IMG/VR virus record: IMGVR_UViG_3300049988_000375
Span: 17,354 to 81,353 of that record
From: a virus
Lineage: Duplodnaviria > Caudoviricetes
Length of the DNA stretch: 64,000 bases
Strand: one strand, 5' to 3'
Shown: in pieces, positions 3,307 to 55,443 of the stretch
Layout of the letters: each line of letters opens with the position of its first letter
How positions within the stretch are numbered: position 1 is the first letter of the stretch
Program-made: the position numbers and the translations under genes
The notes under the pieces: model-generated
The model's input: only the letters and a program-made list of their open reading frames with translations
Database searches by the model: none
Told to the model about the DNA's origin: nothing

Positions 3307-3311
3307 CGCCG

Positions 3312-7424: not shown

Positions 7425-8318
7425 ATGCAGCAACTTGCCACCGGCCTTACCCCCGCGCTGGAAACCATCTTTGATAAATTCCTGGATGAAAACCCCCAGC
7501 CCTACTTTAGCTTCCGAACGCTCGATGCCAACAAGGCGACGATGCCCGTCGTTGGGCCGGAAGGCAACGTAACGTCCCTACCCGTGAACGCCGCCCGCAT
7601 CCTGCCCGGCCGCACGAAGATTCGCACGGCGGGCGGCAAGCAAGTCTGGCTGCTCTACTCGGTGGAGGAGCAAACCGTGGAGCACCAAGGCGTGACTTCC
7701 GTTGTGGGCAAGCCCGAGCCCATTGCCTTCGAGCCCAAGGATTATTGCATCTTGGCCGTGCGCCGCGACGACCGCGAAAAGCTGGTGCGCCTGCTGTTCA
7801 GCGACGAGTGCCGCAACAGCCTCAACCCTGACAAGCGCCGCCCCGACCAGGGCGAAGTGTACGAATTGATTGAGCCCGCCAAAACCGCCGAGCAACTGGT
7901 GGTGAGCAAGGAGAAGGTGCTGGATGCCCAAATCGCCGTGCGCCAGGCCGCCGACAGCGAATTGAAGCTGGCCTGTGAGCGCCTGAGCCTCGCTGTGACC
8001 GACGACCGCAACCTGAACGCCGCCTCGCTCTACGACGCTGCCAGCGCCGACCCGGCCGCCGTGCTGCGGGTGCTGAGCGACGAGTGGGACAAGACCACGG
8101 CCCTGGTGCGCGACCTGACCACGTCCTGCGTGATTGAGTTCGACGCTGCCGAGCGCAAGTACCTCACCACCCTCGACCGCAAGGCAATCTTGAATGTGCC
8201 CACGGGCAACTTCGAGCAAGCCCTGATTAAGCACCTCTCCGACACGCAGGGCCAGAACCTCAAGCGCACCCTCGGCCGCCTGCTCGAAGAAGCCAACAAG
8301 AAGAAAGGCAAGAAGTAA
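7425..8318 (+). CDS. Putative auxiliary capsid/virion protein
   Basis: 297 aa directly after the MCP; basic C-terminus; synteny inference. Confidence 0.55.
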   Translation: MQQLATGLTPALETIFDKFLDENPQPYFSFRTLDANKATMPVVGPEGNVTSLPVNAARILPGRTKIRTAGGKQVWLLYSVEEQTVEHQGVTSVVGKPEPIAFEPKDYCILAVRRDDREKLVRLLFSDECRNSLNPDKRRPDQGEVYELIEPAKTAEQLVVSKEKVLDAQIAVRQAADSELKLACERLSLAVTDDRNLNAASLYDAASADPAAVLRVLSDEWDKTTALVRDLTTSCVIEFDAAERKYLTTLDRKAILNVPTGNFEQALIKHLSDTQGQNLKRTLGRLLEEANKKKGKK

Positions 8319-11515: not shown

Positions 11516-11920
11516 GTGAAGTCGCACGAGCTGTTTGAGTTGCTGCAATGGGTGAAAGGCCAGGCTGAACACGCGGTAGAGCGGGCAGACTTCTTTGCAG
11601 GCAAGAGCACCGCATCCTACGCCCGCACGGCCGCAAAGAATTGGCAGGGCTGGGCAGAAAAACAAGCTCTTGTCTGCGAGGCTCTACAGGAGCTAATGGG
11701 CATTCAGAATTTCGATGTGATTAAGGGCGAAGAAAGGCATGAAAATCCGCTTTATGTCGGAGAAACCAGCACGCGCCCAAGCATGATGTTTTGGTCCCTC
11801 GAATACAATTGGGATAAAATAGGGCTAGAAGAATTGGAGGGGCGTTTAACCTATGTGCGTGAGTGCAAAAAGCGCCAGATACTACACTTCGCTCAGCAAG
11901 AACTAATTGATGCCGACTAG
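11516..11920 (+). CDS. Hypothetical protein
   Basis: 134-aa lower-GC ORF overlapping the next gene. Confidence 0.5.
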   Translation: MKSHELFELLQWVKGQAEHAVERADFFAGKSTASYARTAAKNWQGWAEKQALVCEALQELMGIQNFDVIKGEERHENPLYVGETSTRPSMMFWSLEYNWDKIGLEELEGRLTYVRECKKRQILHFAQQELIDAD

Positions 11921-14900
11921 TCGCCACACCTTCGCCCGCCTCGACACCGACACTGCTGCCAGCGCCAAGCCGGCCAGCTCGTTCGACGCGGCCCTGAACA
12001 TCGCCCTCGAACCCGGCTACGTAACCGCTGTAGCTGGGAACGTAGCGGTGGGCTACGACCTGCCCCCCACGGGCACGAACAGGCGGCTGGGGGGCTTCGC
12101 AGATGGCAGCACGGGCGCGGTGGTATCGCTGCTCTACAACTCGTCGGGCCGGCACCGACTGGTGCGCTACGACCCGCTGGGCAACGGCGGGGCGGGCAGT
12201 GAAACCACGCTGCTCGAATGGGGCGGCCTGAACCTGTCACCTGACCTAGTGCCGCAGGGTGGGATTGTGGACGGACTGCTTACCTACCTCGGCGCCGATG
12301 GGCTGCTGCGGAGCGTGAACCTAGAGCGGGTAGCGGCGGGCTTCTACACCCCGGCGCTTCTCGCGGCGGAGCCCTTTTGCCTGCACGAAGTAAAGCCGCC
12401 GCCCACCGTGAACGCGCCTACGGCCGTGCGCCGGGTGGGCACGGGGGGCGACCCCCGCGAGAACCTGCGCATCATTCAGCCCAAAGCCTACCAGTTCGCG
12501 TGCCGCTGGCATTTCCTCGACGGGGAGGTGTCGGTGCTCTCGCCCTTCTCGCCGTGGCTGGACGTGCTGGAAGACCCCGCCACGACGACCTACAACTACA
12601 TCACCGTCACGCTGCCGCCCGCCCCGGCCGGGGTGTCGTCGGTGGAGGTGCTGACCCGCAACCCCGACACCGATGGCTGGCTAGGCTGCGAAGAACTGAC
12701 CCGCACGGCCAGCGGCTTGCCCGCCAGCTACAACTTCTACGGGGTGCTGAACGGCACGGCCCTCACGGCGGCCGAAGCCATCCGTCTACACGAAGCCGAG
12801 TGGCCCGGCCGCGTGGCTGGCATTGCCCACAGTCGGGCGTTTAAGGCTGACCTGCTCGAAGGCTACGTGACGCCCGAGCCGGCCTTTACGGCTACTGTCA
12901 CCACGGGCAACAGCGGCACGGTGGCGACTGACACGTACAAGCTGGTGGTAGAGTACTTTGAGCCCGGCCCGCCCTCGCAAAATGGCGAGCCGGTGCCCGA
13001 TATTATTTCCAGCCAAACCAACTACTTCCTGCTCGCTTCGGGCACTTACCCCGAGCCCACCTCACAGTACAACCCCATTGTTACCCGCAACGACGGGGGG
13101 CAGACGCGCTACACAGCCCGGCGCGATGTGACGCTGAGCTACGCCGACGCCTTCGCCGTTGGCCCACGGGAGACGTACCGCGAGGTGACGATTGAGCGCC
13201 TGGCGCTCTCCGATGGCACGAACGATTTGACGACCTTCCACGAGAACAGCAGCTACCGGGTCGCCGTGCAGTTCTACGATGCGCAGGGCAAGGCGGGCGG
13301 GGTCAGCAAGGCGGTGAGCGTGTTCGTGCCCAAGCGCGAGAAGGGCGACCAGAACTATCGCAGCATTTTAGCCAGTCTCACCACCACCGACTTGGCCGCC
13401 CTGAACGCGGAGATTCCGGCATGGGCATACTCCTACCAGTTCATGGTCGCCCGCAACGACCGCACGCTCTACTTCTTGCAGGGCCAGGCCGCCGACTGCT
13501 TCGGCTACCTCGGCCACACGATTGAGGTAAAAAGCGACGGGACACGGGTAGAGAGCGAGAAGCTGGTGGACATTATCCACAACGCCCACCAAAAGGTGTG
13601 GGTGGATATTGGCAACTTCCCAGCGGCCGGGCAGGGCTACGTGTGGCAGCCGGGCAGCGGCGACGTGCTGCGCTTTCTCAACGAGGACAAGGAGTTTATC
13701 ATCACCAACCAGGTGGGCGACTACCTCGAAGTGCAGTGGGATGGCTACCCCAACCTGAGCGTCGATGCCACCGGGCAGACCGTGGCCCGCATTGAAATCT
13801 ACTCGCCCAACACCACCCAAAGCGCCCTGTTCTACGAGCGCGGCCCGCGCCTGGCTATTCAGCGCACGGGCGCCGGGGAGAGCGAGCAGCGGTCTTATTC
13901 GCAACCGCAAGTGCTGCTAGAGGGCGATTGCTTTCTAGTGAGCCTGCGCTTCCCGCAACTCGACAAGGGGCGCGACAAGGACAACGACGAGAACTACCAG
14001 CCACCCAACAGGAAGTCGTGGCTTTCGGGCACGAGCGATTGGGTGGTGCTAGTGGAAAGCATGGTGCCGCCCTTCCGGCTGGCCCCGGCCACGACCACGA
14101 CCAGCACCATCTACGAGAAGCGCGAGAAAGGCGGCTTCTTTAGCAACCTGGTGAGCAACCCGCTGAACCTGATTGTGCCCGTTTTGGGCGTTATCAGCAG
14201 CATCGACTACCTCACCACCGACGAACCCAAGACGCCCGCTAATTCCGCGGCCACGACGGTAAACGCCGGGCGCACGGCCGCGAACTTCACCTGGCTGGAT
14301 ATGAGCTTCGGCGGGCGGGCCGGGGCGCAGGTGCCGGCTGCGTTGCAGCAGGTACGCCGCGAAAAGACCATTCGCTTCTCGGGCGTGAAGGTAGCGGGTA
14401 CGCTGCTCAACGGCCTGAGCCAGTGGGAAGCCCTGAGCCAGTACGACGAACTGCCGCAGGAGCAGGGGGCCGTAACGAGCCTCACCGTAGCCGACCAGAC
14501 GCAGACCGATGGCAGTATTTTGCTCGCCACCCAGCAGCGCGGCTCGGTGAGTTTGAGCCTTGGCCGCCAGCAGGTGCAAACCGCCGATGGGCAGGCGCTG
14601 CTTTCCATTAGCAAGCAGGTAATTGGCAGCAGCAACGCCCTGCGCGGGGGCTACGGCTGCACCGACCAGGGCAGCGTCGTTGCCTACGCGGGCAAGGTAT
14701 TCTACTACTGCCGCGAGCGCCACGAACTGGTGCGCTACGACCGCAACGGCAACTCGCCGCTGGGCCTCACCTACAAGGCCCGTACGCGCCTGGCGGAACT
14801 GGCCGCCCGGTACGCGGGCGCCGTGGTGCGCGGCTGCTTTCACCCCTACATCGACCGCAAGGAGTACTGGCTGACCTTCGAGCCGGTGGGCGAACTGCCG

Positions 14901-15422
14901 GGCACGACGCTCGTGTATTCCGACCTCTACGAAGCATTTGCCGACGAGCTGAGCTACGCCCCCGAGGCAGGCTTAGCGGCCGGCGCCGAACTGCTTACCT
15001 GGCAGGCGGGCACGCTCTACCGCCACACCCCCGATGCCCCAGCCGCCACCTTCTGCGGGGCTTACACGCCGCCCACCCTCACCTTCACCGTGGCCCAGCC
15101 AGCGGGCGTTGCCAAGCAGTTCAAGGACGTGGGCGTGGAGAGCCGCTCGCTGTGGCTGCCCACGGCCACAGCCACCGATACGCAGCTTAGCAGCCTCATG
15201 CGTAGCGGCTGGTTCACCTACCGCGAAGGCATCTGGCGCGGTGGGCAGCGCAGGGCGACCAACACGCCCGGCTTTGCGACGCCCTTCCACGCCCTCGACC
15301 GGGGCAACCCCCTGGTAGGCGCCGCCCAAACCATCACCCTCACCGCCCCCGAGGGTGCCGCTGGCCTGGTTGCCTGCCAGGTGTCGTGGCTGCCGCGCTC
15401 GGGGCAAGCAATGGGCGCCTAA
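11907..15422 (+). CDS. Tail stabilisation / muzzle-type protein (1171 aa)
   Basis: Beta-propeller-like composition, size and position typical of podovirus nozzle/muzzle genes. Confidence 0.7.
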   Translation: MMPTSRHTFARLDTDTAASAKPASSFDAALNIALEPGYVTAVAGNVAVGYDLPPTGTNRRLGGFADGSTGAVVSLLYNSSGRHRLVRYDPLGNGGAGSETTLLEWGGLNLSPDLVPQGGIVDGLLTYLGADGLLRSVNLERVAAGFYTPALLAAEPFCLHEVKPPPTVNAPTAVRRVGTGGDPRENLRIIQPKAYQFACRWHFLDGEVSVLSPFSPWLDVLEDPATTTYNYITVTLPPAPAGVSSVEVLTRNPDTDGWLGCEELTRTASGLPASYNFYGVLNGTALTAAEAIRLHEAEWPGRVAGIAHSRAFKADLLEGYVTPEPAFTATVTTGNSGTVATDTYKLVVEYFEPGPPSQNGEPVPDIISSQTNYFLLASGTYPEPTSQYNPIVTRNDGGQTRYTARRDVTLSYADAFAVGPRETYREVTIERLALSDGTNDLTTFHENSSYRVAVQFYDAQGKAGGVSKAVSVFVPKREKGDQNYRSILASLTTTDLAALNAEIPAWAYSYQFMVARNDRTLYFLQGQAADCFGYLGHTIEVKSDGTRVESEKLVDIIHNAHQKVWVDIGNFPAAGQGYVWQPGSGDVLRFLNEDKEFIITNQVGDYLEVQWDGYPNLSVDATGQTVARIEIYSPNTTQSALFYERGPRLAIQRTGAGESEQRSYSQPQVLLEGDCFLVSLRFPQLDKGRDKDNDENYQPPNRKSWLSGTSDWVVLVESMVPPFRLAPATTTTSTIYEKREKGGFFSNLVSNPLNLIVPVLGVISSIDYLTTDEPKTPANSAATTVNAGRTAANFTWLDMSFGGRAGAQVPAALQQVRREKTIRFSGVKVAGTLLNGLSQWEALSQYDELPQEQGAVTSLTVADQTQTDGSILLATQQRGSVSLSLGRQQVQTADGQALLSISKQVIGSSNALRGGYGCTDQGSVVAYAGKVFYYCRERHELVRYDRNGNSPLGLTYKARTRLAELAARYAGAVVRGCFHPYIDRKEYWLTFEPVGELPGTTLVYSDLYEAFADELSYAPEAGLAAGAELLTWQAGTLYRHTPDAPAATFCGAYTPPTLTFTVAQPAGVAKQFKDVGVESRSLWLPTATATDTQLSSLMRSGWFTYREGIWRGGQRRATNTPGFATPFHALDRGNPLVGAAQTITLTAPEGAAGLVACQVSWLPRSGQAMGA

Positions 15423-15928
15423 TGCACCTCACCGCCACCCCCTGCCCGCAAGCTGAATGGCCCGCCGCGATTGCCGCCGTATTTCGGGACGATACGCTGC
15501 TGCTCAACTACTACCACGTTGCCGCGCCCTGCGCGCTGGCGAGTGCCGTGGCTGATAGCTACTGCGCGCTGAAAGAGAATGCGGCGCCCGATTTTGTACT
15601 GTACGCTCTGCGCGAGCGCGGGCACCTGGTTGGCATGATAGGGGTGGAGCTGGAAAGCAACTGCCTCGTCACGTTCGGGCTGAACCGCTCGCACCGCACG
15701 GCCGAGGGCGTCACGGCACTGTCCCTAAAAATCCGTACCTTGCTAAATGTCAGGCAGCCTATTTACTGCCTGCTGTACAAGCGCAACCAACCCGCCCGCA
15801 AGTTTCTGCGCCGCATGGGCTTCACGCCCTCGCACGCCCCGCTGACGCACCCAACCACCAGGCAAACCGTCTTTCTCTACACCCTTTACCCCGCTACCCG
15901 ATGCCCGCAGGTGGATTCGCAACCATAG
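15422..15928 (+). CDS. GNAT-family acetyltransferase-like protein
   Basis: LVGMIGV strand and N.PARKFLRRMGF motif; ATG at 15422 overlaps the upstream stop; typical slot before podovirus ejection genes. Confidence 0.6.
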   Translation: MHLTATPCPQAEWPAAIAAVFRDDTLLLNYYHVAAPCALASAVADSYCALKENAAPDFVLYALRERGHLVGMIGVELESNCLVTFGLNRSHRTAEGVTALSLKIRTLLNVRQPIYCLLYKRNQPARKFLRRMGFTPSHAPLTHPTTRQTVFLYTLYPATRCPQVDSQP

Positions 15929-16870: not shown

Positions 16871-17233
16871 ATGCCCAAGCAAAACCGCCCCGCCGCCGAA
16901 CCCATTGTGACGCCCCACGACCCCGCCAATGATGGGCAAACCCCCAGCGACCCGGCCAACAGCGGCGACGCTATCAATACGCCCGAGGCCACCGAAACCC
17001 CCGAGCTGCAAAGCGACCTCGACAGCATCGTGGACGCCGTAGCGGGCAACGCCCCCGCCGATGGTACGGTGAGCGTGGACTTCGGCAAGGCGGGCAAGCT
17101 CACGGGCTGCCTCGTGCTGAATCACGCCCCTGGCGCCGACTACGCCGCCGACCAAGTGCTGAGCGTACTAGTACCCACCGAGGCCGGCTATGCCTCCATT
17201 CACGTCGAGGGCCGCTACCTGACCGCCGCCTAG
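16871..17233 (+). CDS. Hypothetical protein
   Basis: 120-aa ORF, acidic low-complexity N-terminus. Confidence 0.55.
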   Translation: MPKQNRPAAEPIVTPHDPANDGQTPSDPANSGDAINTPEATETPELQSDLDSIVDAVAGNAPADGTVSVDFGKAGKLTGCLVLNHAPGADYAADQVLSVLVPTEAGYASIHVEGRYLTAA

Positions 17234-17310
17234 CATGAGCGACATTGACGTTGGCTGAGTAAAGCTCGCCGCAAGATTCACCTCCAATTAGTTGCGCAAC
17301 TAGTTTACTA

Positions 17311-17341
17311 TAAGCCCCTGCTACACAGTAGGGGCTTATTT
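17311..17341 (+). terminator. Intrinsic terminator
   Basis: TAAGCCCCT/AGGGGCTTA stem followed by TTT. Confidence 0.65.
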
Positions 17342-17387
17342 GTGCGGGCTTTGTAACTTGCTATCACACCCTCCCCGCCCGCAAGCT

Positions 17388-19142
17388 ATGAATGGCCAGA
17401 TTGCCCCCAACGGCTTCAAAACCGTTGGCAACATCACCTACCTCTACGTGTACCTGCCCCTCGACGGGCGCAGCCTCGTAGCCCGCAAACAGCCTTATTC
17501 GGGCGGGATGCTAATTGACTACGCCACCATTAAAAACGAGGACTTTGACGCGGCACTGGCGGCGCCGGAAAAGCTCGAATACAAGCGCGGCACTGACCTC
17601 GACGCCAACCTAGGCGTACTGTTCAACCAACTCGGCACGGTGAACGCTGCCACGGGTGTTTCCAGTACCGTCACCGACCCGACCGACCGGCCGGGCCGAC
17701 TGCTCGGGCACGTCACGGTGGATAACTTCCCAACTAACTGGACGGGCGGCAGCGCCACGGCGGGCGCCACCGACGTATCAGCCCTCGCTAAAGATGCGAC
17801 GCTCACCGATGGCACGCAGAAGGCGCGGGTGACTAACTGGCCGGCTACCCAACAAGTGGGCGGGTCGGTAGCGGTCAGCAACTTCCCCGCGCCCGTAACG
17901 TCGGTGAGCGTGTCAAACTTGCCCACCACGCAGGCAGTTAGCGGCAGCCTGAGCATAAATAACTTCCCGGCGCCCGTAACCAGCGTGCAGGTGTCTAATT
18001 TGCCCGCTACGCAGCCCGTGAGTGGGCCGCTGACCGATGGACAGCTTCGCAGCGCGCCCGTGGCCGTAGCGGGCGATTTTTACCCCGACACGCAGCAGGT
18101 CAGCATCGCGGTAATGCCCACCACGCCGGTAACGGGCAACTTCTACCCGGCCGTGCAAGCGGTGTCTGGCCCGCTGACGGATAGCCAACTCCGCGCTGCA
18201 CCCGTGGCTGTCAATGGCACCGTGATTGTAGCGAACCCCACCAGCCCCACCGATGTATCGGCGCTGGCAAAGGACGCGACACTGACTAGCGGGGCGCAGA
18301 AAACACAGGTCACCAATACCGTGCCCGTCACTGGCCCCCTCACCGACACCCAGCTTCGGGCTACGGCCCTGCCAGTTGCCGGCGACTTCTACCCGGCTAC
18401 GCAGGCAGTGAGCATCGCCACGATGCCGACTACGCCCGTGGTGGGCACGTTCTGGCAGGCCACGCAGCCCGTTAGTGCCGCCAGCCTACCGTTGCCCGCT
18501 GGTGCAGCCACCGAAGCGACGCTGGCCGCCATAAAAGCCAAGACGGACAATATCGACGTGCTGCTTTCGACGCGCACCAAGCCAGCCGACACGCAGAAAG
18601 TGGATGGGAGCGGGGTAACGCAGCCAGTGAGCGCGGCGGCCTTGCCCTTGCCAGCCGGGGCATCTACGGCGGCCCTGCAAACAAGCATGGGGGCGCAACT
18701 GGCTGCGCTTGTCACAAACTCCCCGACTCTGGTGAGCGGGCGGCTGCCCGTGGACATTGGCGGGGCTACCGTCACGGCCAGCTTCGCGCCCAAGACCAGC
18801 GGCGGCGTGTCGGGCAAGCTCACCCTGGCTAATGGCGTGTCAGCTACCCCCACGGTGGTAAAGGCCACGGCCGGGCAAGTGTACCACCTGTTCGCGGGCA
18901 ACACGTCCAGCTCGGCCGTGTACGTGAACCTCTACGACAAAGCCACTGCCCCCGCAGCCGGCGACACGCCGAAGGAAATGTACCTAGTGCCCGCTGGCGG
19001 GACGCTCAGCCGTGACTTCGTGCTGGGCAGTCAGTTCACCAACGGCATTGGCCTCGCCATCACCTCGAACATCTCGCTGCTCGGCTCACTGACCGGCTTG
19101 CTAACGGCCAATGTGGTAATTGTGACCGTTCACTACGCCTAG
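17388..19142 (+). CDS. Repeat-rich putative fibre/decoration protein
   Basis: Likely start ATG 17388; many TQPVS, GPLTD.QLRA and TDVSALAKDATLT repeats; globular beta C-terminus. Confidence 0.6.
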   Translation: MNGQIAPNGFKTVGNITYLYVYLPLDGRSLVARKQPYSGGMLIDYATIKNEDFDAALAAPEKLEYKRGTDLDANLGVLFNQLGTVNAATGVSSTVTDPTDRPGRLLGHVTVDNFPTNWTGGSATAGATDVSALAKDATLTDGTQKARVTNWPATQQVGGSVAVSNFPAPVTSVSVSNLPTTQAVSGSLSINNFPAPVTSVQVSNLPATQPVSGPLTDGQLRSAPVAVAGDFYPDTQQVSIAVMPTTPVTGNFYPAVQAVSGPLTDSQLRAAPVAVNGTVIVANPTSPTDVSALAKDATLTSGAQKTQVTNTVPVTGPLTDTQLRATALPVAGDFYPATQAVSIATMPTTPVVGTFWQATQPVSAASLPLPAGAATEATLAAIKAKTDNIDVLLSTRTKPADTQKVDGSGVTQPVSAAALPLPAGASTAALQTSMGAQLAALVTNSPTLVSGRLPVDIGGATVTASFAPKTSGGVSGKLTLANGVSATPTVVKATAGQVYHLFAGNTSSSAVYVNLYDKATAPAAGDTPKEMYLVPAGGTLSRDFVLGSQFTNGIGLAITSNISLLGSLTGLLTANVVIVTVHYA

Positions 19143-19143
19143 A

Positions 19144-19184
19144 CCTTACCACTTCGGTAAGGTTAGTTTACCGAAGTGGTAAGG
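19144..19184. repeat. Inverted pair of replication-origin iterons
   Basis: CTTACCACTTCGGTAAG at 19145-19161 and a 16/17 inverted copy at 19167-19183; same unit as at 54970-55100. Confidence 0.9.
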
Positions 19185-19188
19185 TTTG

Positions 19189-19262
19189 CTGCGATTGTCC
19201 GAAAATAAAAGAGTGATTCGCTGCGATTGTCTTTATTATTTAAGAAATATGCAGTACATTTG
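19189..19262 (+). promoter_or_regulatory. Three-site promoter cassette, copy 3
   Basis: CTGCGATT 19189 and 19221, ATATGCAG 19247, TACATTTG 19255. Confidence 0.8.
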
Positions 19263-19268
19263 TAAAAG

Positions 19269-19394
19269 AACACGAGGGCATTCGTGTTGCAGAGACATAA
19301 CAAGTAGAACAAACCGGTCAGCCGGGATGGGCTCATCCCCCTGCTACTTGCCAGCCCCCGCAACGGAATGCCCTCCGTTCGGGGGCTTTTTGTT
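19269..19394 (+). ncRNA. Candidate small RNA / attenuator leader ending in an intrinsic terminator
   Basis: Hairpin AACACGA/TCGTGTT; stem CAAGTAG/CTACTTG with inner GGGATG/CATCCC; terminator AGCCCCC/GGGGGCT plus T run; complementary loops GGGCAT/ATGCCC. Confidence 0.55.
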
Positions 19395-19697
19395 GTACTG
19401 CGGTTCGCGCCATGAAACAACAACCGGCAATGAAAGCCCCATTTGGCCTGCTCATAGTCTTGTGAACCGTCTAGCGTGATGCCGAATCGGAGAGCATGGG
19501 GTAGGTGGAGGCAATGTGATGAGCTAGGGGACGCTTCACAAACTCCCTGTACACGGACAAGACGCACCGGCTCCGGAAGCATCTTCTTAGTGCAGCAGAA
19601 AAAACGCCTAACTCCGTAGCGGTAGCTAATGGGGGAAGGGGGCGCTTTTTCTGCTGTTCCGAACTTCAACAACACACTCTCCATAAGCAGTCTTGTT

Positions 19698-20024
19698 ATG
19701 ATAACGGTTTGCAACAAGCACTACCACACAAAAACAGCCGCAGACCAATACGTAGGACGAGGCAATGTGCTGGGCAACCCATTCACGCACAAAGCAGGCA
19801 CCCTAGCAAAGTTCATTTGCAAAGACCGCGACGAGGCTGTGAATAGCTACCGTACCTACCTGCTCGAAAAGCTGGCCGCCAAAGACCCCGAAATCTGCGC
19901 TGAAATGAATCGGCTCTACAAGCTGGCAAAAGCTGGCGATTTGAATTTAGTGTGCTACTGCGCGCCTCAGCGCTGCCACGCTGACATTCTAAAGGAAGTA
20001 CTCGAATCAAAAATTAATGGTTGA
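19698..20024 (+). CDS. DUF4326-like protein
   Basis: YVGRG..LGNPF and LVCYCAPQRCHADIL motifs; likely start ATG 19698. Confidence 0.8.
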   Translation: MITVCNKHYHTKTAADQYVGRGNVLGNPFTHKAGTLAKFICKDRDEAVNSYRTYLLEKLAAKDPEICAEMNRLYKLAKAGDLNLVCYCAPQRCHADILKEVLESKING

Positions 20025-20072
20025 AGCGGAGCAAAGCGAGCATTCAACAAAAACCTTTTAACCGATAGCAAA

Positions 20073-20294
20073 ATGATTGACCGATTGTTGAAAGAACTGC
20101 CCGAGGTTGATGTGGTGATTGTTCACATCGAAGGCGCGTATCAGCAACTTGTTTATGGACTAAATGAGTGGCGCGAGCAAGGCGGCTGGCTCGGATTCCT
20201 AAAAAAGAATCATGTCTCTATCCGTCAGGTAAAAACAGAGCGGGCTAGAATGTCGGCTTTTGACTTTGCGAAAATGGGTGATTTTGCCGGTTGA
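20073..20294 (+). CDS. Hypothetical protein
   Basis: 73-aa ORF in the accessory operon. Confidence 0.5.
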   Translation: MIDRLLKELPEVDVVIVHIEGAYQQLVYGLNEWREQGGWLGFLKKNHVSIRQVKTERARMSAFDFAKMGDFAG

Positions 20295-20575
20295 TTATGC
20301 CACACGAAACCTATTGGGCGCCCTACCCAGCCCTAATGTCGCGACTAGGATTTGAGCGGCAGTCGAGGTGCGGCCGGCAGTGGGTGAAGAAAAATCCTGA
20401 CAACCCCGCTTCCCCCGATTTATTTATTGGGGAACTACCACGGCAGACCCTGCCGAACTTTCCTGCAAAGAAGGCCCCTACATTGTTTTTAGGGGCGAAT
20501 TGCAATCTGAGGAAGAACTTATTACTCTCTTACGACAAATCAGGTGGACATGAGCAAGCCAATCGTATACATTGA
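20291..20575 (+). CDS. Hypothetical protein
   Basis: 94-aa ORF filling the gap in the operon. Confidence 0.35.
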   Translation: MIMPHETYWAPYPALMSRLGFERQSRCGRQWVKKNPDNPASPDLFIGELPRQTLPNFPAKKAPTLFLGANCNLRKNLLLSYDKSGGHEQANRIH

Positions 20576-21347
20576 GCGCCACCCCGACGAACCGATGGGG
20601 GAGTGGGCACTTGCCGCGTGGCAAGGCTTTAAGTGGGATGGGTATGAAGTGCGCTTTGCCTTTCCCTTGCAAGAGGACTTGGCAAAGGGGAAAGGGGGCT
20701 GGAGTGGATATTACGACTACCCCACCGCTGAAATAATCCGCCTTATGCCCGACCGCCCATTTGTTGGGTCAGTCACTACTACTATGCGGCTTTTCCAGTA
20801 CTGGAATCGGCAGGTGCCCAAGCCCCTGAACGTGCCCGATGAGCTGCTGGCCTTCGCGGGTCGGCCGATTGAGCGCCTGCGGCTGGAAGATGCGCTGCTG
20901 CGAATGGAGGCCGACCACCGCCCGCAGTTCATCAAGCCCGCCGACGAGGCCAAGCTGTTCACGGGTGGGGTCGTGGCAACGCCCGCGCACGTCGCCTTTC
21001 TCTTTGCCGACCTGCACCCCGACACGCCCGTACTGCTCTCTCCCGAGATTAACCTGGTGACAGAATACCGGGTGTTCGTGAACCGTGACCGCGAGATTGC
21101 CGCCATGCGCCACTACTTGGGCGACCCCTTCGTGCGGCCGAGTAAGCTGTTCATTCGCAAGATGATTGACAGCTACACCGCCGCCCCGCGCTGCTATGCG
21201 CTCGACGTGGGTGTGACTGCCTCGGGCAAAACCGTTGTGGTCGAGTGCAACGACATGTGGGCCTTGGGGACATATGGAATGGACCCGGCAGCCTACTCTC
21301 GAATGCTGGCCCAGCGCTGGCACGAAATGATAACCAACCTTAAATAA
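20544..21347 (+). CDS. ATP-grasp enzyme, DUF4343 / R2K-like clade
   Basis: FVGSV, FIKPAD..KLFTG, EYRVFV, YALDVGV and VVECND motifs. Confidence 0.8.
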   Translation: MDMSKPIVYIERHPDEPMGEWALAAWQGFKWDGYEVRFAFPLQEDLAKGKGGWSGYYDYPTAEIIRLMPDRPFVGSVTTTMRLFQYWNRQVPKPLNVPDELLAFAGRPIERLRLEDALLRMEADHRPQFIKPADEAKLFTGGVVATPAHVAFLFADLHPDTPVLLSPEINLVTEYRVFVNRDREIAAMRHYLGDPFVRPSKLFIRKMIDSYTAAPRCYALDVGVTASGKTVVVECNDMWALGTYGMDPAAYSRMLAQRWHEMITNLK

Positions 21348-47973: not shown

Positions 47974-48054
47974 TGAAAGGTTGGTACATGGGCAAGTCCC
48001 GGTGACTGTAACTCACCCGCTTCGGCTTTGCAGGTTCGACTCCTGCCCTTTCAA
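47974..48054 (+). tRNA. tRNA-Tyr (GTA), long variable arm, CCA not encoded
   Basis: Acceptor TGAAAGG/CCTTTCA; anticodon arm GGTGA-CTGTAAC-TCACC; T arm GCAGG-TTCGACT-CCTGC. Confidence 0.9.
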
Positions 48055-48083
48055 CAATCTCACTCAATCGGAGTGATACGATT

Positions 48084-48156
48084 GTGTTAGTAGCTCAACT
48101 GGTGGAGCGCCCGACTGTGTATCGGATGGCTGTGGGTTCGAGCCCCATCTAACACC
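48084..48156 (+). tRNA. tRNA-His (GTG), CCA not encoded
   Basis: Acceptor GTGTTAG/CTAACAC, C73; anticodon loop CTGTGTA; T arm GTGGG-TTCGAGC-CCCAT. Confidence 0.88.
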
Positions 48157-48166
48157 CTTTTATTAT

Positions 48167-48238
48167 GGATTGGTAACATAGAGGTCTATGTGTCGCTCTG
48201 AAAAAGCGGAAATGTTGGTTCGATACCAGCCCATTCCA
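48167..48238 (+). tRNA. tRNA-Phe (GAA), CCA not encoded
   Basis: Acceptor GGATTGG/CCATTCC (one T:T mismatch); anticodon arm TCGCT-CTGAAAA-AGCGG; T arm GTTGG-TTCGATA-CCAGC. Confidence 0.85.
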
Positions 48239-48241
48239 CTT

Positions 48242-53762: not shown

Positions 53763-54416
53763 CTAGTAGAGGTTCGCGGCGTGCTTGGCTACGTAAGCGG
53801 GGTAGACTTGCTGGAATTGGCCGAGTAGGTCGTGGATGCTGCCACGCTGGTAGCCATTCGTCCAGCCACGTTCTCCGTTCTCGTGCTTGTAACCAATCAA
53901 CTCGCGCAGTTCAGTTTTCACCAGCGACTCGTTGAAGGGGGAGTCAGCCGGGTATTTTGTTAGCTCATCAACAAGTTTGATTCCGAGGCCCAAAAGGTCA
54001 GCCCATGCGAACAACTCGGGGAACTTGTCGCGGAAGGCCGAGGGCTGCCTGGGCGCCTGACCAACCACCCACTGGTAGATGCGGGTGTAGTTCAGGGGCA
54101 GCGACTTATACTTGTCGAGCAGCCCCTTGTAGCCCTGCTTGATAATGCTGTTGAGTTCGGCTAGGGTGAGGTTGGGGAAGTCCTCGGCAATGTCTTTGGC
54201 GAGTTGCTGCCAACCTTCTTCTGCGATAAGGTCGAAGCCATTGGTGCGGCACAGGCTGGCTTTTTGCAGGACAACAAGCACGGTGGCTGTCCCTTCGCTA
54301 GTCGAGGCCCAAAGCGCGACAGGCTGCAAAGGCGTTGGCAACTTGGTCGGCAGGGATGAGTCCGAGGGCTGTGGCGCGGTTGGCTGGGCTTGGAGTGAGT
54401 TGCTGGCTGGTTCCAT
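53763..54416 (-). CDS. Putative helicase loader / replication accessory protein
   Basis: Directly downstream of the initiator gene (position-based inference). Confidence 0.45.
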   Translation of the reverse strand: MEPASNSLQAQPTAPQPSDSSLPTKLPTPLQPVALWASTSEGTATVLVVLQKASLCRTNGFDLIAEEGWQQLAKDIAEDFPNLTLAELNSIIKQGYKGLLDKYKSLPLNYTRIYQWVVGQAPRQPSAFRDKFPELFAWADLLGLGIKLVDELTKYPADSPFNESLVKTELRELIGYKHENGERGWTNGYQRGSIHDLLGQFQQVYPAYVAKHAANLY

Positions 54417-55443
54417 GATGGATTAGTTGGGGGAGGATGTTGGTGAGGTTGCTGGCGATTTGGATAAGTTTCTGCTGGCGTTGCAGGAAGGCTTCGAGGC
54501 GGTTCCAGTTTTGCAGCAGGGCCGTGAACAGGGCCACGGTGGTTTCGTCGGTGCCGGCGCCGGGCTGGGCGAACAGCGTTTGGTAGATGGCGCGGGCCGC
54601 CTTGTTGTCGGCGGCCCCGCCCGCTGGTGGCTCGGCCTGGTTGTGCTGGCGATACCAAGTGCGGTAGACTTCCAGCATCAGCGCCCCTTTGCCAGCCAGC
54701 GGGTCGGCCTCGGTTCTGGCGGCCCGTCTTTTCGGCGCGGGCGGCGCGGCGGGCAGCAACGATGTTTGGGCTCGTAGGCTTTCAAGTTGTTGTTCCTGCG
54801 CTTTGAAAACCTCTACCGACTTCTCAATTCTTTTTTTGAGCCGCAAATTCTCAGCTTCCAGCTCGGCTATTTTTTTTTGAGAAGCGGCGTCAGCCGCCAA
54901 GGCTTTTTGTTCGAGTTCGGCAATTTTACTAAGTAGGGTTTCTTCCTTCTTTACTTCTATTAACTTATGCTTACCACTTCGGTAAGGTATCCTTACCACT
55001 TCGGTAAGGCTATCCTTACCACTTTCAGGCACAACCTTACCACTTTTAGCGCCTAACCTTACCACTTCGGTAAGGTCTGCAACCTTACCACTTCGGTAAG
55101 AACTCCGCAACTCAGGGGTCGGCGTGAGGGTGCGTCGCTGCCCGGCCACGCGGGGGGTGAGCAGCAAATAGCCGCGCTCTACCAGGGCGCTGATATGGCG
55201 GCTCACCATCGGCTCGGTCATGCCCAAGCGCTTCGCCAGGTGCCCGTTGTTGGCATCGAAGCACCCGCGCCCGCCGCACTCATAGAGTTGGCAAATGTCA
55301 GCCAGCACGCTTCGCATGGCGGGGTGCATCCCCTTAGCAGCCATAATCAGGTGCCCTACGCTTGTGGGCGCTTTATCAGCCACCATGTAGGATGCGGCGG
55401 GGTCTTCGGTCACAGAGGGCAGGAAGTGGTGAACGGCGGTCAT
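54298..55443 (-). CDS. Phage replication initiator (N-terminal winged HTH)
   Basis: ANNGHLAKRLGMTEPMVSRHISALVERGYL HTH; internal iteron array. Confidence 0.8.
   Translation of the reverse strand: MTAVHHFLPSVTEDPAASYMVADKAPTSVGHLIMAAKGMHPAMRSVLADICQLYECGGRGCFDANNGHLAKRLGMTEPMVSRHISALVERGYLLLTPRVAGQRRTLTPTPELRSSYRSGKVADLTEVVRLGAKSGKVVPESGKDSLTEVVRIPYRSGKHKLIEVKKEETLLSKIAELEQKALAADAASQKKIAELEAENLRLKKRIEKSVEVFKAQEQQLESLRAQTSLLPAAPPAPKRRAARTEADPLAGKGALMLEVYRTWYRQHNQAEPPAGGAADNKAARAIYQTLFAQPGAGTDETTVALFTALLQNWNRLEAFLQRQQKLIQIASNLTNILPQLIHHGTSQQLTPSPANRATALGLIPADQVANAFAACRALGLD
54970..55100. repeat. Replication origin iterons inside the initiator gene
   Basis: CTTACCACTTCGGTAAG at 54970, 54992, 55058 and 55084; degenerate copies at 55015 and 55036; 21-26 bp period; AT-rich flank near 54920-54969. 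Confidence 0.9.

Follow-up and report, generated by a model that had tools for sequence, protein, structure and literature searches.

A predicted kissing-loop terminator RNA at the head of a phage accessory-gene cluster

What fills a gap of 557 nucleotides (nt) without genes in a phage genome, between a gene for a 600-amino-acid (aa) protein (17340-19142) and a gene of the DUF4326 family, and what could it do for the genes behind it? The gap lies in the record IMGVR_UViG_3300049988_000375, an 81-kilobase (kb) provirus with a GC content of about 60%, of which a stretch of 64,000 nt was analysed (the window, to which all positions without a contig name refer). Its host, so far uncultured, is probably a bacterium of the Bacteroidota with high GC content that lives in the phyllosphere. 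An earlier note on this DNA had read part of the gap as a leader RNA with two mutually complementary loops and a switchable terminator, reminiscent of the immunity RNAs P1 C4 and P4 CI. Here we describe an uncatalogued RNA element, a kissing-loop terminator RNA, in which the loop of the first hairpin is complementary to the loop of the predicted intrinsic terminator. Its sequence and surroundings make it most likely a transcriptional gate in front of a block of accessory genes.

Results

Architecture of the element

The predicted RNA of about 125 nt is built of three segments (Table 1): a 5' hairpin (H1) with the apical loop L1, a middle domain (P2) reached over a purine-rich linker, and a two-tier intrinsic terminator (H3). 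The interior of P2 holds two small hairpins, CCGG-UCAG-CCGG and GAUG-GGCU-CAUC. The lower stem of H3 is formed by AGCCCCCG (19353-19360) and CGGGGGCT (19380-19387; the 3' arm reads CGGGGGCU as RNA), and its upper stem ACGGA/UCCGU encloses the 6-nt loop L3, AUGCCC (19368-19373); a U-run (T5) follows at 19387-19391. The two hairpins whose loops could kiss are separated by the large P2 domain, and the element is present once in the genome.

A repeat search reproduced all pairings named in the earlier note. The 10-nt arms around L1 and L3 are 100% complementary and centred on the two loops, which corresponds to the proposed kiss between GGGCAT and ATGCCC. Two further pairings were recovered, one between AGTAGAACAAA (19303-19313) and the terminator tail TTTGTTGTACT (19389-19399), matching at 10 of 11 positions, the other between GGGGCTTT (19382-19389), part of the 3' arm of H3, and AAAGCCCC downstream (19433-19440). 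A stretch of 135 nt folds better than all of its 200 shuffled versions (z = -4.2). The notion of a promoter-driven structured RNA of about 125 nt ending in an intrinsic terminator is supported by the letters. Read as coding DNA, the region yields a 184-aa open reading frame (ORF) on the minus strand and a 97-aa ORF on the plus strand, both rejected as implausible Cys/Arg-rich translations.

Perfect 10-nt inverted repeats with arms 40-140 nt apart are not rare in the window (21, against 6-17 in shuffled versions), so that the complement is not significant on its own in a single sequence. It exceeds chance because both arms sit exactly in apical loops and because five relatives keep the complementarity with other letters. 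Since a lone repeat of this kind is common at such spacing, it is the comparative evidence that carries the claim of a putative kiss.

Table 1 Features of the locus in the window and the predicted RNAs of related contigs
Feature	Sequence	Position	Strand	Remarks
Inverted pair of the 17-nt unit TTACCGAAGTGGTAAGG	window	19144-19184	.	directly after the stop codon of the 600-aa gene, 4 base pairs (bp) before the promoter cassette; outside the RNA
Upstream promoter element GCTGCGATTGTC	window	19188-19231	+	two direct copies
-7 box TAcaTTTG, Bacteroidota-type	window	19255-19262	+	member of the phage's repeated promoter cassette
H1, 5' hairpin	window	19269-19288	+	7-bp stem AACACGA (19269-19275) / TCGTGTT (19282-19288)
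L1, apical loop of H1	window	19276-19281	+	GGGCAU, 6 nt
Arms of the loop-loop complement	window	19274-19283 / 19366-19375	+	GAGGGCATTC / GAATGCCCTC; kiss GAGGGCAUUC / GAAUGCCCUC, 10 nt, the same in L186
Single-stranded linker	window	19289-19300	+	GCAGAGACAUAA, purine-rich
P2, middle domain	window	19301-19350	+	7-bp closing stem CAAGUAG (19301-19307) / CUACUUG (19344-19350)
H3, two-tier intrinsic terminator	window	19353-19391	+	lower stem, upper stem, loop, U-run
Remaining leader	window	19392-19697	+	306 nt, holds the domain 2 hairpin
Domain 2, second long hairpin	window	19593-19608 / 19641-19656	+	arms; G-rich loop side GGGGGAAGGGGGCG
DUF4326-family gene	window	19698-20024	+	first gene of the accessory cluster; PF14216, E 9e-16
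R2K ATP-grasp gene	window	20544-21347		PF18299, E 4e-36
Predicted RNA	L186	7213-7342		kiss as in the window
Predicted RNA	L194	2234-2358		kiss GGGCGGAAUCC / GGAUUCCGCCC, 11 nt
Predicted RNA	L171	15096-15227		kiss GGUUGCAGC / GCUGCAACC, 9 nt
Predicted RNA	L173	14930-15055		kiss GUGACGGC / GCCGUCAC, 8 nt
Predicted RNA	L178	17024-17141		kiss GGGAGC / GCUCCC, 6 nt

Occurrence in related phages

Relatives were collected through homologues of the 1171-aa virion protein (11907-15422) with 47-71% identity in Logan, ENA, JGI and NCBI assemblies. Their contigs are syntenic with the window, with genes for the portal, the head, a 1150-aa protein, three small genes and proteins of about 600 and about 2000 aa. 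The element lies inside this virion module, and the accessory cluster, where there is one, is inserted between the small genes and the 600/2000-aa pair. The RNA design was found in five contigs of uncultured phages (L171, L173, L178, L186 and L194), either at the head of the cluster or at a contig end in that position; the members with the RNA at the cluster head are the window, L186, L173 and L178. The RNA is absent from L172, L174 and L175, relatives that have no accessory cluster at the site.

All three segments were seen in six of six members. The 5' hairpin has an equivalent with a loop of 6-7 nt in each of the five contigs, and the two-tier terminator is in every member a GC-rich hairpin of 13-15 bp followed by T5-6. 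The linker is identical to that of the window in L186 and L194 and related in L171 (GCGAGAUAUAA), L173 (GCAAGAGUUAA) and L178 (GACAGACGAACCUAA); P2 differs in length and letters from allele to allele. A covariance model built from the window type matched L194 (E 7e-9) and L171 (E 0.003), with L173 (E 0.06) and L178 (E 0.33) at the borderline; these two are putative members of the family mainly by position and architecture. A further match of the model, L178:5750-5827 (E 0.067), was discarded as an ordinary gene-end terminator.

Searches beyond these contigs were unproductive. In IMG/VR, no match was obtained with an RNA 40-mer, a promoter 18-mer, the DUF4326 protein, the head protein or a 17-mer common to the window and L194, and alignment of the 1171-aa protein returned nothing close, only relatives of 35% identity. 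Phage isolates gave no match by DNA or head protein, and no close relative was found in species genomes; the 600-aa protein had only distant matches among genome contigs, from other phyla. The promoter 18-mer had 22 single matches in metagenomes, in unrelated records, which an estimate from the collection size led us to take as chance, and a pattern of the terminator tail matched two unrelated phages in IMG/VR, both with plain tandem terminators.

Covariation of the two loops

The six members carry five alleles of the loop pair (Table 1). In every allele, the two apical loops, that of H1 (6 or 7 nt) and that of the terminator, lie in full at the centre of the complement, and the kissing arms are 68-82 nt apart. 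The most telling case is L194, in which the H1 stem and the linker of the window are kept while both loops are replaced together. When the 5' 50 nt were shuffled, with no demand made on loop placement, the longest complement reached the observed length in 0, 2, 15, 51 and 845 of 3000 shuffles for the five alleles. A descriptor scan for a terminator loop complementary to an upstream hairpin loop, run over both strands of 1.49 Mb, gave strong matches only from this family. In L171 and L178 the H1 stem contains G-U pairs, which, together with the U-runs on the plus strand, indicate that selection acts on the plus-strand RNA.

The pairs were read directly from the sequences by script rather than counted column by column, as MAFFT alignments put the loops of divergent alleles out of register; an alignment fitted to the covariance model (26 rows, false matches included) also misplaced loops and misassigned H1 of L173. 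L1 and L3 have no other perfect partner anywhere in the 81-kb record, and complements of the conserved linker elsewhere in the window are at chance level only. Comparison of the alleles demonstrates selection on the predicted loop-loop pairing.

A discrete exchangeable unit

From start site to U-run, the RNAs of the window and of L186 are identical at 122 of 125 positions, and all three differences fall into the tetraloop of the CCGG hairpin of P2. Outside the RNA, the promoters and the downstream leaders of the two phages diverge, and their 1171-aa proteins share 50% amino-acid identity. The spacer that follows the terminator has a different distribution: L186:7343-7390 equals L171:15228-15275 although the RNA alleles differ, and the spacer of L194 (2360-2439) resembles that of L173 (15056-15140). 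As phages with different RNA alleles share spacers, the RNA, the spacer and the second hairpin farther downstream recombine as separate modules. These comparisons demonstrate that the predicted RNA is a self-contained module, bounded by its start site and its U-run, within which L1 and L3 move together.

A putative gate in front of accessory genes

With moderate confidence, we interpret the element as a kissing-loop terminator unit close behind its promoter, which would produce a compact RNA of about 125 nt and limit read-through into an exchangeable set of accessory genes. Starting at the phage promoter, RNA polymerase would make H1 first, then the linker and P2, and next the strong two-tier terminator H3, at which most transcripts would end, yielding the compact RNA. 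The 6-nt loop of H1 would pair with the 6-nt loop of H3 and so tie the 5' and 3' hairpins together, and only those polymerases that read through H3 would reach the remaining 300 nt or so of the leader and the accessory genes (DUF4326, R2K ATP-grasp and others). The unit would act as a built-in gate, or attenuator, on the cassette, with a stable small RNA as by-product. In the window, L186 and L173, the leader from the terminator to the first gene has no TAnnTTTG-like promoter box (the L171 contig ends before a called gene), and expression of the accessory cluster should for this reason need read-through of H3.

Several points weigh against this interpretation. The set is small (six members, five alleles), and the kiss of L178, being only 6 nt, is ordinary by length alone (845 of 3000 shuffles). 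L176 has an accessory cluster at the site but is devoid of the RNA element. A pairing that involves the terminator loop could form only after or beside the hairpin, which makes an effect on termination hard to derive. By our own estimate, a kiss in cis requires 9-17 nt of linker to span 26-28 stacked bp, which would be tight in L173 and L194. Public sequencing runs with this DNA comprise one DNA run of a leaf metagenome, probably the source of the record, and no RNA run, and it is for this reason that we infer the start of the RNA, its 3' end and the efficiency of the terminator. Production of the RNA, efficient termination, a kiss within one molecule and the direction in which the kiss would change termination or stability are likewise predictions.

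Alternative explanations

As the cis kiss would by our estimate be tight in L173 and L194, pairing between molecules has to be considered. In the manner of P4 CI and P1 c4, the terminated RNA could pair through L1 or L3 with nascent leaders of the same allele and cause a dose-dependent, allele-specific change of termination or stability, the loop pairs then being specificity types of a heteroimmunity-like kind. Fully complementary loops of 6-7 nt have the classical geometry of antisense kissing complexes, and complementary sites on one transcript that covary between phages are the signature of c4/CI systems. Such a trans-acting, self-recognising RNA would agree with two sites of one transcript whose letters vary in concert among related phages, with the exchange of the RNA as a unit, which keeps L1 and L3 matched, and with a cis kiss that we estimate to be sterically tight in some alleles. 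We nevertheless regard it as unlikely: no match to C4, IsrK or any other antisense family of Rfam was found, the genome holds a single copy, for whose loops the 81-kb record offers no other target, the promoter type is that of the structural operons, no antirepressor or replication family was matched by the downstream genes scanned, and the partner loop in cis would be locally far more concentrated than any free RNA.

The likeness to P1 C4 and P4 CI drawn in the earlier note would hold for the complementary site on the same transcript and its matched changes between phages, not for the family: an Rfam search of 18800-20200 at E <= 10 returned 17 weak chance matches, none of them to C4, IsrK or a related family. 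The acceptor-like CCA after the P2 stem, to which the note had also pointed, is not kept; at this place the window has CCA, L171 CCAU and L178 CCAA, and L173 and L194 read AA and CU. A role in immunity finds no backing in the promoter, which is that of structural operons, or in the downstream genes scanned, where no lytic regulator or antirepressor family was matched.

Another possibility is a two-state attenuator of the zipper or antiterminator type, in which the loop and 3' arm of H1 would pair with the 5' arm and loop of H3 and block the terminator by a long-range helix enclosing P2; termination would return once a factor stabilised H1. The three-part layout and the complementarity of its first and third parts match those of pLS20 cATT (PMC13401043). 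The complement of the window can be extended to 10 + 5 bp (GUUGC/GCAAC), and in L171 it covers 16 of 19 positions, with the long-range fold as minimum-energy structure (-49.1 kcal/mol, against -46.4 for the terminator fold). In L173 (8 nt) and L178 (6 nt), on the other hand, the complement is confined to the loops and cannot sequester the terminator arm. Even with the energy of the kiss uncounted, the terminator fold is better by 5-12 kcal/mol in the window, L186, L173 and L178: by constrained folding, terminator and long-range folds have -50.7 and -45.7 kcal/mol in the window, -50.7 and -46.0 in L186, -50.2 and -41.8 in L173, and -40.4 (unconstrained; -33.2 with the loops held unpaired) and -28.5 in L178. 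The complement is also symmetric about the loops rather than skewed towards the 3' arm of H1 and the 5' arm of H3, and an internal loop of 10 x 9 separates the long-range helix from P2. Because the complement is loop-only in L173 and L178 and the terminator fold is favoured, the conserved feature would be a kiss between intact hairpins and not a zipper switch, which we hold to be distinctly improbable.

The switchable terminator of the earlier note is not supported by the comparison either. Neither alternative pairing recurs in relatives: L186 carries the same RNA followed by another tail and lacks the pairing of AGTAGAACAAA with the terminator tail as well as that of the 3' arm with AAAGCCCC, and AAAGCCC is absent downstream in L171 and L178. 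As a switch, the alternative fold is disfavoured by a terminator fold that is clearly more stable in four of five alleles.

Matched covariation of two non-self-complementary loops is the observation from which the intermolecular pairing of the phi29 packaging RNA (pRNA) was recognised. By the same token, L1 and L3 could join molecules hand in hand into dimers or rings, and the RNA would be a component of a scaffold or particle rather than a regulator. Its gene lies inside the virion module, and the 2-4-nt linker before H3 would, by our own estimate, favour side-by-side dimers over a strained cis kiss. Rfam gave no pRNA match, however, and the phage has ordinary portal and head genes; L172, L174 and L175 share the virion genes and lack the element, which consequently is no essential part of virion or packaging, and the element travels with accessory genes. 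Self-assembly of this kind is very unlikely.

Lastly, a DNA-level inverted repeat (a site of protein binding or recombination) or a chance match beside an ordinary terminator is hardly credible: about ten perfect 10-nt inverted repeats at such spacing are expected by chance in a window of this size, and an iteron-like pair of protein-binding repeats lies just upstream, yet five alleles with different letters place the complement always in the apical loops of two hairpins, the G-U pairs of the stems would count as mismatches at the DNA level or in the opposite strand, the unit begins at the promoter and finishes at the U-run, and the island of identity shared by the window and L186 has the same extent as the transcript.

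Promoter and upstream region

The -7 box before the RNA belongs to a cassette that occurs seven times in the window (3311, 7323, 19188/19220, 33586, 45432, 51936 on the minus strand and 56750 on the minus strand), and transcription would start at about 19267-19269. The cassette is composed of GCTGCGATTGTC (TGAAAT[TA][TA]AGT), about 10 nt and an inverted repeat of the CTGCGATT type, the 3' half of which continues into GCAGTAnnTTTG; exact copies of GCTGCGATTGTC elsewhere are located at 3311, 7323, 45432, 51936(-) and 56750(-), each then followed by boxes of the GCAGTAnnTTTG type. The cassette of the structural operons is the same promoter type as that in front of the kissing-loop RNA. Behind each of the six other cassettes a gene begins within 20-40 nt; the promoter at 19255-19262 alone leads into a structured RNA and a terminator. 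All five relatives have a (G)C(C)GTAnnTTTG box at an equal distance before the RNA.

The cassette has the appearance of an operator set for one phage regulator, heading most operons. Relatives have inverted repeats of their own at the equivalent place, such as CTGCCGTAATTTACC in L171, which occurs again at L171:2360.

The inverted pair of TTACCGAAGTGGTAAGG (Table 1) is an iteron-like site adjoining the promoter of the RNA. Four more copies of the 17-mer are found in direct orientation at 54969-55099 on the minus strand, inside a gene for a 381-aa protein (54298-55443), against 0.07 expected. The hairpin at 19144-19184 lacks a U-run. The virion transcript from upstream is probably ended by H3 as well.

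Only the central part of the product of the 600-aa gene (residues ~120-470) is conserved, with 35-55% identity to phage and prophage proteins from many phyla; its best full-length relative, from L194, is 36% identical. It is likely a fast-evolving virion or host-contact protein.

Downstream leader and accessory genes

Beyond the terminator, the leader contains a second long hairpin, domain 2 (Table 1), with counterparts at L173 ~15255-15311, L171 ~15376-15431, L186 ~7489-7548 and L178 ~17215-17325. The stem letters differ in each of them, the hairpins have at least 11-19 paired bases, and the fold z ranges from -2.9 to -6.0. On the 3' side, the loop reads GGGG-N2-4-GGGGC(G), opposite a C/U-rich 5' side; the ATG within domain 2 of the window is not kept (UUCGGGG in L186). 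From its length, this hairpin may be a processing site of the RNase III type. The leader also contains a 17-codon ORF at 19412-19465 (MKQQPAMKAPFGLLIVL), for which no counterpart was seen on reading the leaders of L186, L171, L173 and L178, without a systematic scan for small ORFs; it is probably not a gene.

The accessory cluster opens with the DUF4326-family gene and extends to about 23.3 kb. Six other small genes of the cluster were scanned without a match to a Pfam family, and no lytic regulator, antirepressor or replication family was matched among the downstream genes scanned (DUF4326, R2K ATP-grasp and the small genes).

The clusters of relatives hold other cargo, including KilA-N, an ERF recombinase, a Mom-like protein, HNH and methyltransferases; examples are L173:18803-19561(-), L186:8343-9029 and L178:5196-5777. 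Because the cargo differs in this way, the slot behind the RNA is swappable.

Elsewhere in the window, three adjacent phage tRNA genes are present at 47974-48239 (Tyr-GTA, His-GTG and Phe-GAA). At the gathering threshold, Rfam recognised tRNAs only, in the window and in four relatives.

Discussion

P4 CI (seqB with seqA/seqC) and P1/P7 c4 are small structured immunity RNAs that are derived from leaders and linked to premature termination. In terms of RNA logic, they would be the closest parallel to the element described here, which would share with them a small structured RNA from the 5' part of an operon, complementary to a covarying site on the same transcript. The partners here are, in contrast, the loops of the RNA's own first hairpin and terminator and not separate target boxes; the sequences give no hint of processing by RNase P, and the CCA is not conserved; and the location is a virion module, ahead of accessory genes, whereas the known RNAs precede an antirepressor (icd-ant) or replication and kil genes. 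In P4-like prophages, CI is a C4-type and seqA an IsrK-type RNA (PMC3632133).

The closest functional parallel would be the PR'-6S RNA/StxS-tR' unit of lambdoid phages, where a promoter is closely followed by a strong terminator, a short RNA is the default product that can be a stable regulatory small RNA, and the downstream genes need read-through (PMC7547250). There, 6S and StxS have no pairing between a 5' hairpin and the terminator loop, and the genes behind are the late operon, whereas they are accessory here. No antiterminator of the Q or NusG type was found here; the search of the 81-kb record covered PF02357 (NusG-like), other antiterminator families were not searched for, and most genes of the phage are without a known family.

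In layout, pLS20 cATT is similar: it heads a horizontally mobile operon and consists of a long leader in which an upstream hairpin and a central stem-loop precede an intrinsic terminator. Its antiterminator, the default structure, arises as the central stem is lengthened by pairing of the first hairpin's 3' arm with the terminator's 5' arm and loop (PMC13401043). The complement of the present element comprises the loops plus or minus 1-2 bp in L173, L178 and L194 and reaches further only in L171 and the window; it is not contiguous with P2, and four of five alleles favour the terminator fold. With phi29 pRNA, the element has in common two complementary, covarying hairpin loops in one phage RNA. 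The pRNA loops, however, pair between molecules on the prohead, whereas one of the loops here is that of a terminator; close relatives do without the element, the portal and head genes of the phage belong to another type, and no Rfam match was obtained.

Searches of Rfam 15 and of the full-text literature yielded no description of a kiss between a 5' hairpin and a terminator loop in phage leaders. A bolder reading, which we consider improbable, takes the loop pair as an address: each allele would recognise only itself, the abundant terminated RNA pairing loop to loop, as a dimer or in trans, with nascent leaders or with further copies of its own allele, and the element would be a portable, allele-specific gate that is widespread in phages of Bacteroidota. 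If this were true, it would be a sense-strand counterpart of the antisense RNAs of copy control and of P1/P7 c4 heteroimmunity.

Leaders with terminators and small RNAs derived from leaders are known; what we found no description of is a first-hairpin loop held complementary to the terminator's own loop, a pairing kept through five complete changes of letters in a unit that is passed between phages as a cassette. The most likely gate in front of accessory genes thereby raises a testable question, namely how a loop-loop contact at a terminator would affect termination or RNA stability, and the element offers both a new RNA family for annotation and a compact natural kissing-loop module.

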